A DNA stretch of 64,000 bases, taken from an uncultured Acidobacteriota bacterium (lineage in GTDB: Bacteria > Acidobacteriota > Terriglobia > UBA7540). Positions 25,153 to 29,639 of this stretch are shown here, in pieces; positions within the stretch are counted from its first letter, which is position 1; the number at the start of each line of letters is the position of its first letter. The translations under genes and the position numbers were made by a program. The notes under the pieces were generated by a model. That model did no database searches, had not been told where the DNA came from, and was given only the letters and a program-made list of their open reading frames with translations. Location of the stretch: positions 864,001-928,000 of the forward strand of contig CAWDSK010000003.1 in NCBI GenBank assembly GCA_963804995.1. The letters are read 5' to 3'.

Positions 25153-26907
<1,755 letters not shown>

Positions 26908-27364
26908 TTAACCCGTAGCAGCGCATGGGTTGCTCCCCGCTTATGCGGGAATACTCGTTCACGCTGCACCATCGCCAAGGTGTGGAAACCTGCGCCGCTG
27001 GAGCAGGCGCACCGTGACGAAAAAAGAATCGATCGGAAAGAAACGGGCGACGCAGCCGCGACACACCGCTCGAATACAGCACCGTTGTCGGAATGGCCAG
27101 TCAAGCTATGCCTGCTTCGGGCAGTGTCCTAAATGTGTGTTGATTTCTCGTGGCGGCCTCGGAAGGTAGTATCGCCACCGCCTCATTCGGAAGAAGTTCA
27201 GCCGAGCTACAAATATTCGGACAGAACATGCCACCCTTTAAGGGAAAATATCAAGGGGGTAGGGCCGTTAGTTATACAAGGCATAATTGATCGTTTCAGG
27301 TGGGAAACTTGCGAGGCTTTGTTGGCGGGACGGCTCCCCCCTTATATCACTAACTTCCTATATT

Positions 27365-27430
27365 TGGTCGGGGCGCGCCGATTCTGACGGCGGACCTCTT
27401 GGCCCAAGGCAAGCACGCTACCTAGCTGCG
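27365..27430 (-). pseudogene. 5'-truncated, degenerate tRNA-Pro(TGG)-like sequence, possibly an att remnant
   Basis: Minus strand CGCAGCTAGGTAGCGTGCTTGCCTTGGGCCAAGAGGTC-CGCCG-TCAGAAT-CGGCG-CGCCCCG-A-CCA; 5' acceptor strand absent. Confidence 0.6.
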
Positions 27431-27465
27431 GCTGCGAGAAGATGGGAAAGGGGCGGTCGAAACTT

Positions 27466-27562
27466 TGGTGTGCCCGGAAGGATTCGAACCCTCGACCAAG
27501 GGATTTCCTGGGCCGCCCCTCTCCAGATTCGGTCCCGTGCTTTCCCACTGAGCTACGGGCAC
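27466..27562 (-). tRNA. tRNA-like gene with intact acceptor, D and T arms and CCA, but a 29-nt anticodon loop; identity unassignable
   Basis: GTGCCCG-TA-GCTCAGTGGGAAAGC-A-CGGGA-[29 nt]-TCCCT-TGGTC-GAGGG-TTCGAAT-CCTTC-CGGGCAC-A-CCA. Confidence 0.7.
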
Positions 27563-28014
27563 ACTTTGTTTTGAGATGCTAAAACCCAGCAAGAGGTTGC
27601 ACTCAGCATTGCCATGCTCAATCTCTAAAAGCGTTTGGCCTTCATTCCTCCCGCGCCCCCCTGCCCATCAAGTCAGTCCTCGGCACCGAGCCGTCCTGAG
27701 TGGGAGGATTGCCAGGACGGAAGTGGGATGACACGCCCACCAAGCAAGAAAGCCAAGCAATGCCACCCAGCCCAGGAATTGCAGCCATGGCATAATGCGG
27801 GGGACCCAGTCAGGCGTTCTGTGCTTCCATGCCCAATGATCCTCCCTCGCGATCTGGTACTTGATCTGGTATCTAGCGGCAAGGTAAGCCCTTGTTCCCC
27901 ACGAAAGCAGACACACGCTAAGACACCCCGCTTCTCCAACCATCTTCCACCTCGGAGGTTGCGAGGTTCGCGGACAAGAAATTATGCCCGACCCCTCCCT
28001 GGCGATCCCGACTT

Positions 28015-28353
28015 CTACGCAGCTTTCCTGGTCTCGTGGCTTTCTGCGCCTGAAATTATTGTGGGGGCGAGTGCCTTTGCCATTGCCTTCGCGGTCGCGA
28101 CTGCAACGAACGCTCCCACAAAGGCACCCAGCAAGGCCGGAATCAAGTATATGTCGGCGATTTTGACTCGCTCAAACCAGTGACCGATGATGGGTGAACC
28201 CAGCCAGGCTCCCACCCAGCCGGCGATCACCTTAACAAGAAAGCCATCGAAACTCTCCAGGACCCGATAGCGAACCAGGTAATGGATCACGAAGGCTGCA
28301 ATCACGCCTGCCACCAACAAAACCAAGAATGCCCGGAAATTCATTCCGATCAT
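28015..28353 (-). CDS. GlsB/YeaQ/YmgE-like (transglycosylase-associated) small membrane protein
   Basis: Three hydrophobic helices, AGWVGAWLG and IPALLGA; GAGGAGG RBS. Confidence 0.7.
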   Translation of the reverse strand: MIGMNFRAFLVLLVAGVIAAFVIHYLVRYRVLESFDGFLVKVIAGWVGAWLGSPIIGHWFERVKIADIYLIPALLGAFVGAFVAVATAKAMAKALAPTIISGAESHETRKAA

Positions 28354-28507
28354 GTTTCCGCCTCCTCAACTAACCACTCTTGGGACCTCGGTCCTTCACA
28401 CAAAGGAACATCAAGAAATGAGTCCCACCGCTGAATCACGAACACCGAGCAGCTACTATCATCCGCACTGAAAACTGAACCACCCGTTATCGCGTAGCTC
28501 CGCTCAT

Positions 28508-28936
28508 TCAGGCCGCAATGCTCTGAACCCGCGGATGGTTTTCTAAAACTCGGCCTATTTCCAAAACCGTCAACGGCTCGACCAAATAATCCACAGCCCC
28601 CAACTGCATTGCCTCCAGGTAGCAGCCCATGTCAAGGCACCGCGCCACGACCAAGACGGGCAAGCTGCGGTTGGTCTCTGTCGCGCGCTTCAGCACACAG
28701 CTCCCTTCGAAGTTGGGAGTCCCCTGACTCACCATAACGAAGTCGAAGACTTCGTCCGCCAGGCAGCGGACAGCCTCCTGATAAGAGTTGCACGCCCGGA
28801 CCCGATACCCATACCCTTCGAACATGTTGAAATAATATTGAAGATCTCCGGGGTCTTCGTGCACTAGGAGCGCTTTTGCTCTCGGAACACGGAGAGGTTG
28901 TGTGCTCTCTTTTTGGTTCGTGCCTCTCGGCCGCAT
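28508..28936 (-). CDS. Atypical single-domain receiver protein
   Basis: ALLVHED, FDFVMVS, AMQLGAVDYLVEP: receiver fold with phospho-Asp and Lys substituted; AGGAGG RBS. Confidence 0.75.
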   Translation of the reverse strand: MRPRGTNQKESTQPLRVPRAKALLVHEDPGDLQYYFNMFEGYGYRVRACNSYQEAVRCLADEVFDFVMVSQGTPNFEGSCVLKRATETNRSLPVLVVARCLDMGCYLEAMQLGAVDYLVEPLTVLEIGRVLENHPRVQSIAA

Positions 28937-29639
28937 AAGTCACCTCCTAAGTGTCGGCCATCCGTGTTCTACCCTCGGCGGAAGAAACTCATCTTGCGGG
29001 CCGTTCCCTGGGCTTTCGCCCCTGTTGCCAATGACACAGCCTTTGCGCACACAAGGCGATCAATCGGCGCGCTCACCGGGAGTTATTTGTTGCCTCGTTA
29101 AATCGTCTGCACGCAGGAAATTTCGCCAACCGCAGGGGCGGGCGCCGTTCTATCAACAACTCGGCGACGCAGGCACACACAGGGATAGTGAGGTCTGGCG
29201 TGAGGATGTCGTCTGTCGGAGGAAGTCAGCGTCACTGACTACTGGAAGGTCGCCCTTCCCTGGATCGACGAAGATCAGCAATGGCACAAAGCGGAACGTA
29301 TAGCTCATTGAAGACCTCCGTATATGCAACAGCTTACTCCCAAAAAGTTCCAAGTCAAGCCGAATAACCTCGCGCACTCTGCGGCTCTTAATATGATAAA
29401 CATACACTGTATTATTAACACACGGCTTTGCCGCCTGGCAGTACAGGGAAGAGGGAACGGAAGGACAGGGAACAGGTGGAAAGTGACGACAGGTTAGTCG
29501 AGAGGGGGCTTGCTCAAGAACTGCCCCCATGCATCGGGACAAAAGAACGTAGTGCGGCGCGGCGGAGCCGCAAGGGAATTGTAGCGCCGACCTCCGCTTG
29601 GTGAGGTCCGCGGCTTTCAGCCTCAGGCCCTCGCGTTCT

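Follow-up and report, generated by a model that had tools for sequence, protein, structure and literature searches.

The identity of bacterial tRNA-Ala resides in A73, G2-C71, G3·U70 and G20, and the accessible part of PMC9976931 places none of it in the anticodon, so that a tRNA lacking an anticodon can stay chargeable. Alanine identity without an anticodon is a property of tmRNA (RF00023), and YrlA-type Y RNAs, as presented in the available portion of Chen et al. (PMC4201824), are non-decoding tRNA mimics with D and T arms. In soil Acidobacteria, irregular tRNA-like genes including the allo-tRNAs lie near toxin-antitoxin genes and a transposon gene; some irregular tRNAs of this group are inactive in translation, and the supplement lists a G3U70 type (Mukai et al., PMC5389517, in the sections open to us). 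Here we describe a family of RNA genes from Acidobacteriota which has something in common with each of these groups. With bacterial tRNA-Ala (RF00005) it shares the cloverleaf, the 7-bp acceptor stem, CCA and A73 and, in most members, G2-C71 and G3·U70; with intron-bearing tRNAs it shares an anticodon loop enlarged by additional sequence, whose length is typical of archaeal introns. We found no published description of such an RNA in a literature search covering chiefly openly readable papers, and no matching architecture in Rfam 15, which returned generic tRNA-clan matches only. Non-decoding tRNA mimics as such are already known; what appears to be undescribed is this family, with the latching of its trailer and the IS1-type elements that carry it.

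A tRNA-like gene with an enlarged loop and its relatives

The window analysed here is a 64,000-nt stretch of DNA, and coordinates are positions in it. The genome that carries it is called G000, and other genomes and loci bear G and L numbers, respectively. The features of the locus are as follows.

27466–27562, minus strand: tRNA-like body of 97 nt including the encoded CCA; acceptor pairs G1-C72, U2-A71 and G3-C70, with A73
27504–27532, minus strand: 29-nt loop replacing the anticodon loop; pyrimidine-rich at its 5′ side, followed by a purine-rich pairing strand and a short purine-rich tail
27513–27524, minus strand: loop strand of a 12-bp loop:trailer helix (11 Watson-Crick pairs and one G·U)
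27457–27465, minus strand: A/U-rich linker behind CCA, with an RNWUU (RNase E-type) word at 27460–27464 where cleavage is predicted
27445–27456, minus strand: trailer strand of the loop:trailer helix, pairing with 27513–27524
27143–27444, no strand assigned: downstream stretch kept in related strains, whose contigs differ at ~3–7% of letters; REP-like palindrome near 27372–27398
27120–27142, no strand assigned: IS1-type terminal inverted repeat, with one mismatch in 22 to the end of the G1023 mini-transposon

The initial annotation had described a cloverleaf with a 29-nt loop, a perfect acceptor stem, CCA and a canonical T loop, all of which we confirm on the minus strand: the acceptor stem has 7/7 Watson-Crick pairs, and a T stem of five pairs closes a canonical T loop. 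The D arm and the anticodon stem which it listed are also present, each with one open pair (C13·A22, leaving 3/4 pairs, and C27·U43, leaving 4/5). The branch is 7/5 and the variable loop is 5 nt long. The proposed resemblance to Lys/Ile2-type genes holds for the window copy, whose body shares 49 of 58 positions with a putative tRNA-Ile2(CAU) from its own genus, compared with 42/58 for tRNA-Ala(CGC) and 35–42/58 for the other family members; the body of L196 also leans to tRNA-Ile2 (47/58) while retaining G3·U70. Rfam and the ARAGORN intron search, both of which had been suggested as checks, gave a tRNA match of 48.3 bits (gathering score 29, E 2.8e-7), with the loop handled as an insert, and a forced tRNA-Pro only. 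ARAGORN in default mode missed the gene, and tRNA was the only Rfam model above threshold there, with no tmRNA match. Default tRNA annotation misses or mislabels the family. Folded to its free-energy minimum, the 97-mer does not give a cloverleaf, nor does it do better than shuffled sequences (z −0.91), and no sigma-70 promoter was called upstream of the window copy. Elsewhere in G000 (C2–C6 and C9), the ARAGORN intron search calls one 93-nt repeat tRNA-Tyr eight times, which looks like a dispersed repeat.

The family comprises nine distinct clear members (the window copy, G039, G293, G970, G1023, L188, L196, L214 and L217) and a tenth, diverged one (G007), which ends in CCG. All nine clear members are 95–101 nt long with loops of 26–32 nt, and a 7-nt anticodon loop with U33 does not occur in them; L190 and L197 are identical to G293. 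Six of the ~1,050 genomes searched, with uneven sensitivity, carry the gene, and these genome-borne copies all belong to Terriglobia, the same class as the host. The named protein closest to the host's SmpB is 88% identical to it and carries a Terriglobia label. BLAST in 60 relatives returned short matches only, mostly to T arms of ordinary tRNAs. A long-loop pattern matched 3/151 genomes (the window, G039 and one duplication artefact), 6/401 genomes, yielding G293, and 3/121 in a further set, and a class-wide pattern matched 3/401 (the window, G039 and G293). The pattern used for metagenomes required a tRNA frame together with the 5-nt loop motif GYGGC and asked for neither U70 nor the trailer; among its 36 loci were six family members (L188, L196, L214, L217, L190 and L197). 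A covariance model, R1, built from the first seven members (the window copy, G039, G293, L188, L196, L214 and L217) without the loop:trailer pairs, but with a trailer sequence profile, added G007, G970 and G1023 from 101, 150 and 137 genomes searched, respectively. A generic long-loop pattern applied to 4/64 parts of a genome-contig collection gave 120 loci, mostly archaeal intron tRNAs and none of them a family member, and this set was reused as controls. Viral contigs gave one and four matches in two pattern scans, with no family member, and plasmids gave five short T-arm matches only. A one-mismatch pattern for the trailer only proved too loose, matching ordinary tRNAs in 102/301 genomes.

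The first seven members share 57–85% of their stem positions; their acceptor, anticodon and T stems vary on both sides yet stay paired, and the D stem is complete (4/4) in six of the seven. The homologs keep the enlarged loop and the covarying stems, which supports a tRNA-mimic non-coding RNA, one of the options raised by the initial annotation. In Rfam 15, the eight other members match the tRNA clan only and eight members score 48–58 bits; for L196, the best kept match is to the tRNA portion of the tmRNA model and falls short of the cut-off of that model. L212 (G3·U70, 24-nt loop) and G556/L045 are without a trailer helix and were left uncounted, as were L184 and L199, which look like archaeal Ala tRNAs with introns.

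The scans also brought up tRNA-like genes of other kinds. Those with enlarged loops outside the family, bacterial or phage, are L212 (4001–4093), L045 (1494–1603), L254, L255, L038, L056, L082, L125 and L172. L134 (DATIYC010000113.1) is a tRNA-Ile gene with a short intron that looks archaeal; its contig bears the title Candidatus Acidiferrales and may be mis-binned. Long-variable-arm tRNAs with a UAU anticodon are widespread in bacteria and phages (L039, L040, L058, L098, L154, L158, L185, L187, L191, L194, L200, L202, L252 and L253); this group recalls the UAU allo-tRNAs in the accessible sections of PMC5389517 but appears with a 7-bp acceptor stem.

As for alanine identity, G3·U70 is found in 7/9 clear members and G2-C71 in 8/9, and acceptor pairs 4–6 vary freely. 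A73 was demanded by the metagenome pattern and by the parsing, so it is not independent evidence. The exceptions to G3·U70 are the window copy, with G3-C70 alongside U2-A71, and L217, with A3-U70; the related strains X2 and X4 have U70. The family members are likely alanine-loadable, non-decoding tRNA mimics. The window copy, given its U2-A71 and G3-C70, may be uncharged now and, with G3·U70 lost, is possibly drifting. Ordinary tRNA-Ala(GGC) is present in G039 and G293, where the mimic is additional.

Four public runs (X1–X4) had a small share of the region, and their assembled contigs were used. X4, a soil metatranscriptome, contains a 348-nt contig of depth 8 that spans 27229–27569 with the whole loop, unspliced. 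This independent contig rules out misassembly, which the initial annotation had considered. It has 17 letters differing from the window and one gap lying outside the gene; among the 14 listed of the 17 differences, three fall within the gene, and all three agree with the structural model. A change of C70 to U gives G3·U70, U63 is replaced by C, and a loop G becomes A, converting the sole G·U of the loop:trailer helix to A-U. A 232-nt contig from X2, a peat metagenome, extends over the 3′ half and into the loop and shows the changes C70 to U and U63 to C, as read from distances to the contig end; X1 and X3 have short pieces only over the gene. As contigs rather than reads, these data speak for presence and not for expression level, and the RNA library may contain DNA.

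Pairing between the loop and the 3′ trailer

Each of the nine clear members has, in the purine-rich segment of its loop, a stretch complementary to its own trailer, 8–15 nt behind CCA. It is this helix of loop and 3′ trailer that is conserved, and it reaches beyond the 97-nt gene to which the initial annotation had confined itself. Its predicted strands are ordered as in an H-type pseudoknot based on the anticodon stem, and 8–9 bp make up its conserved core. When the helices of the nine members are anchored on the motif, offsets 1–5 are paired in 45/45 cells, and offsets 0, 6 and 7 in 8/9 each; offset 7 is G-C in four members and A-U in four, and offset 8 is A-U, G-C, C-G or G·U. G1023, found with the model that lacks loop:trailer pairs, has a 12-bp helix made of new letters. 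After swapping of trailers, the observed Watson-Crick count outside the core was reached in 12/5040 permutations of seven members and in 134/20000 of nine, figures which overstate the effect because the members are related. A helix with at least 8 Watson-Crick pairs is found in 7/7 of the first members versus 7/116 other long-loop tRNA genes, the distinct ones among the 120 control loci, and 0/19 parsed among the 30 other metagenome hits. Caveats to the pairing evidence are that the loop motif GYGGC was part of the metagenome pattern and that R1 contained a sequence profile of the trailer. Energy alone does not separate the family, some control tRNAs pairing equally strongly (lowest −28.3 kcal/mol). 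The helix of G970 has 7 bp only (shuffle p 0.07), and G007 pairs weakly, with 6 Watson-Crick pairs.

The inner helix TCTGG/CCAGG, claimed by the initial annotation within the loop, can be formed on paper, shares letters with the trailer-pairing strand and is not kept in the homologs. Folded alone, the loops of seven members adopt weak, differing structures (−2 to −8 kcal/mol). The loop:trailer helix can also form nested after the cloverleaf opens. The tethers (the CCA end with 8–15 nt, and 7–9 nt of the loop) should by estimate suffice to reach across a tRNA of standard dimensions. A resemblance of the trailer's start to Cas9 repeats was considered and a Cas9 guide reading rejected: RuvC_III was detected in 1/5 genomes, G000 being without it. 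The RuvC_III model gave a match in 0/14 controls.

RNWUU, described as an RNase E motif in the available part of PMC5222698, occurs within 12 nt of CCA in 8/9 members versus 6/44 ordinary tRNAs of G000, and RNase E is encoded in 4/4 genomes tested. Downstream of the trailer, G293, L188 and L217 have terminator-like hairpins.

Transposon carriers and neighbouring genes

IS1-type ends were found at 4/10 loci: both ends in L188 and G1023, and one end in the window and in L196. At the other six loci none were found, some of the flanks being short. The G1023 copy travels in a 329-bp element that has inverted ends, an 8-bp target duplication and no other cargo; such a mini-transposon suggests that there is a benefit in carrying the RNA itself. 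The L188 copy is found close to one end of a 4,100-bp element whose ends are identical over 27 nt and which shows no target duplication. This element encodes an IS1-like transposase (93.1 bits with NF033558, cut-off 100; NF050000 above its cut-off) and, as passengers, an XRE-ImmA protein and a DUF4411 protein. An end like that of G1023 lies 324 nt behind CCA in the window and 32 nt behind CCA in L196. Ends and duplications of this kind are usual for IS1 elements, for which a particular duplication length is expected. The gene is positioned near the element end and points outward in L188, L196, G1023 and the window. The partner end of the window repeat was not found in this genome, and no IS1-family transposase lies beside the window copy; in strain X4, different DNA joins at this repeat (loose end at 27119). 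A candidate left IS end at 27591–27613 was discarded, because nothing closely similar occurs elsewhere in the genome and a target duplication is missing. The word TTTGACAAACC, located upstream of the gene's 5′ end, is common to G039, G293, L217 and G970 and may represent a −35 box or another element end.

The neighbouring genes vary, with PIN-like genes at 2/10 loci, SIR2-STAND at one and a methylase-Mrr fusion at one. G293 is accompanied by PIN-like and HTH antitoxin-like genes, L196 by SIR2-STAND and a REP transposase, and the window copy by the methylase-Mrr fusion. The last of these (25153–26904, minus strand) joins an N6/N4 DNA methyltransferase to an Mrr-like domain and has partial paralogs on C2, C3 and C5. 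The window also holds, at 26930–27085 and 26832–26858, the internally deleted remnant of a REP-associated tyrosine transposase beside a REP-like palindrome; the remnant matches the intact gene of L196, and the palindrome has ~50 copies in the genome. On the other side, the block at 27631–29375 is paralogous and 91% identical to G000:C1:15242–16991; the similarity ends 70 nt short of the RNA gene, which has no counterpart in the paralog.

Possible roles and comparison with known RNAs

Our preferred reading, to which we assign a probability of about 0.5, is that these genes encode mobile, anticodon-less tRNA mimics which are latched by their trailer, likely loaded with alanine after a predicted cut and most likely used as toxin decoys; charging, processing and the decoy role are what we infer from the features described above. 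The gene would be transcribed as a precursor carrying a short trailer, and the trailer would fold back on the loop as a pseudoknot, which would keep exonucleases from trimming the RNA to CCA in the usual way. RNase P would generate the 5′ end, and CCA would become free through an RNase E-type cut within the linker, after which the trailer piece would remain bound or be released. AlaRS would then charge the G3·U70 members, because it needs no anticodon, and the product, unable to decode, would titrate tRNA-directed toxins on behalf of the element or the host. Use as a decoy is tentatively placed above other uses because of the cargo context and the similar setting of Acidobacterial allo-tRNAs in the accessible sections of PMC5389517. 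The neighbours are inconstant, which counts against the decoy step; what favours it is this context. With a molecule of <150 nt, charging, processing, structure and toxin protection are directly testable in E. coli or in vitro.

A further step, which we regard as rather doubtful, would be a two-piece alanine-charged tRNA spread by IS1-type transposons, in which the clipped trailer serves as a built-in message on the anticodon loop. If true, the two-piece RNA could engage EF-Tu and the ribosome, or tRNA-directed toxins, without mRNA or SmpB, and the Ile2-like body of the window copy would imply that the loop-plus-trailer module is graftable onto other tRNA bodies.

The outward orientation near the element end in L188, L196, G1023 and the window, together with the terminator-like hairpins after the trailer in G293, L188 and L217, also fits a processing and termination signal of the transposon's own transcripts. 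RNase P and RNase E would then cut at the tRNA-like body, and the helix would act as a switch or, with mature RNA binding the trailers of new precursors, as a feedback latch limiting read-through from passenger genes; the L217 loop can indeed alternatively pair over 13 bp with the 5′ arm of its terminator, and the nested form of the helix suits the same role. Such a signal leaves unexplained why G3·U70 is retained in 7/9 members amid changing neighbouring acceptor pairs, no fixed downstream gene is found, and in the G1023 mini-element the RNA alone is the cargo, so we consider this unlikely. The Ala identity, as in tmRNA, the normal T stems and a self-contained duplex at the decoding end would be compatible with an alanylated RNA that enters stalled ribosomes with EF-Tu, the helix replacing the codon-anticodon helix or SmpB, as a message-free rescue or alanine-adding RNA. 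But G000 already has a standard tmRNA and SmpB, separate from the window gene, the helix far exceeds 3 bp and would probably be bulky for the A site, and the patchy, mobile distribution is not that of a housekeeping RNA; we judge a rescue role improbable. That the gene is a dead tRNA carried passively by IS elements, its loop insert being an old inverted copy of the trailer, would suit its rare, patchy occurrence, the three stem or identity departures of the window copy and the partly decayed look of G007 and G970. Against this, members 57–85% identical in their stems keep four stems and the helix through double changes, and strain differences respect the structure. A recent pseudogene, as the initial annotation had offered, is not supported for the family, and passive carriage is very improbable.

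Splicing of the loop was also considered. The remark of the initial annotation that the insert is too short for a group I intron stands, since the excess is 19–25 nt with no catalytic core; no group I intron matched in the window at the gathering score, nor at E up to 10 around the gene. Its other suggestion, a protein-spliced mini-intron, would have the trailer as guide and a missense tRNA as the spliced RNA. RtcB occurs in 3/3 host genomes (it is also common in controls, 10/14), and a cut after position 33 gives a correct Ala GGC loop in G293. Cutting at each of eight positions nevertheless yields no anticodon shared by the seven members (after position 33: GGA, GAG, GGC, GGA, AGG, GGG and AGU), and the tRNA splicing endonuclease domain EndA (PF01974), detected in four archaeal controls, is present in 0/3 host genomes (92–100% complete). 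G039 and G293 have ordinary tRNA-Ala(GGC), the RNA-library contig is unspliced, and no joint skipping the loop was seen in the contigs of the four runs, from which rare spliced forms could be dropped. Among the readings considered, this is the least probable.

The tRNA complement of G000 deserves separate mention. This genome, 92% complete, has neither an intact Ala(GGC) nor an intact Ile2 gene, and no Pro(UGG) gene outside a tRNA array. It holds a 3′ fragment of Ala(GGC), and of tRNA-Ile2(CAU), a gene distinct from the window RNA gene, the 5′ half only (C1:70212–70251, L303), ending just past the anticodon loop; neither a matching 3′ half nor an intact Ile2 gene was found in the assembly. The array (G000:C5:1304904–1309125) comprises ~26 divergent tRNA genes and encloses an RtcB gene (C5:1307108–1308217). 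Replacement of a missing tRNA by the mimic was rejected, given the normal Ala(GGC) of G039 and G293 and the fact that no loop cut yields CAU.

Compared with known systems, the family differs from tmRNA in that it possesses a genuine D stem, lacks a tag reading frame and does not continue into a long body past the position of the anticodon stem. Unlike the YrlA-type Y RNAs in the available portion of PMC4201824, it is not permuted and is without the GNCGAAN(0–1)G motif, which was not seen by eye in the aligned members, and Ro60 (TROVE) is absent from 3/3 host genomes. tRNAs with archaeal bulge-helix-bulge or bacterial group I introns, as covered in the accessible part of Williams (10.1101/2020.01.27.920355), are set apart by the family's lack of a consistent anticodon, of EndA and of room for a ribozyme, and by its trailer, which is a partner in a conserved pairing. 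Allo-tRNAs, according to the sections of PMC5389517 open to us, have an 8/4 or 9/3 branch, a long variable arm and a 7-nt loop, none of which is seen in the window element, whereas the family combines the 7/5 branch and short variable loop with a large anticodon loop and the trailer helix. Bacterial tRNA-Ala remains the nearest in identity elements, and from it the family is distinguished by a loop of 26–32 nt without an anticodon, by its conserved trailer pairing and by its rare, mobile occurrence.
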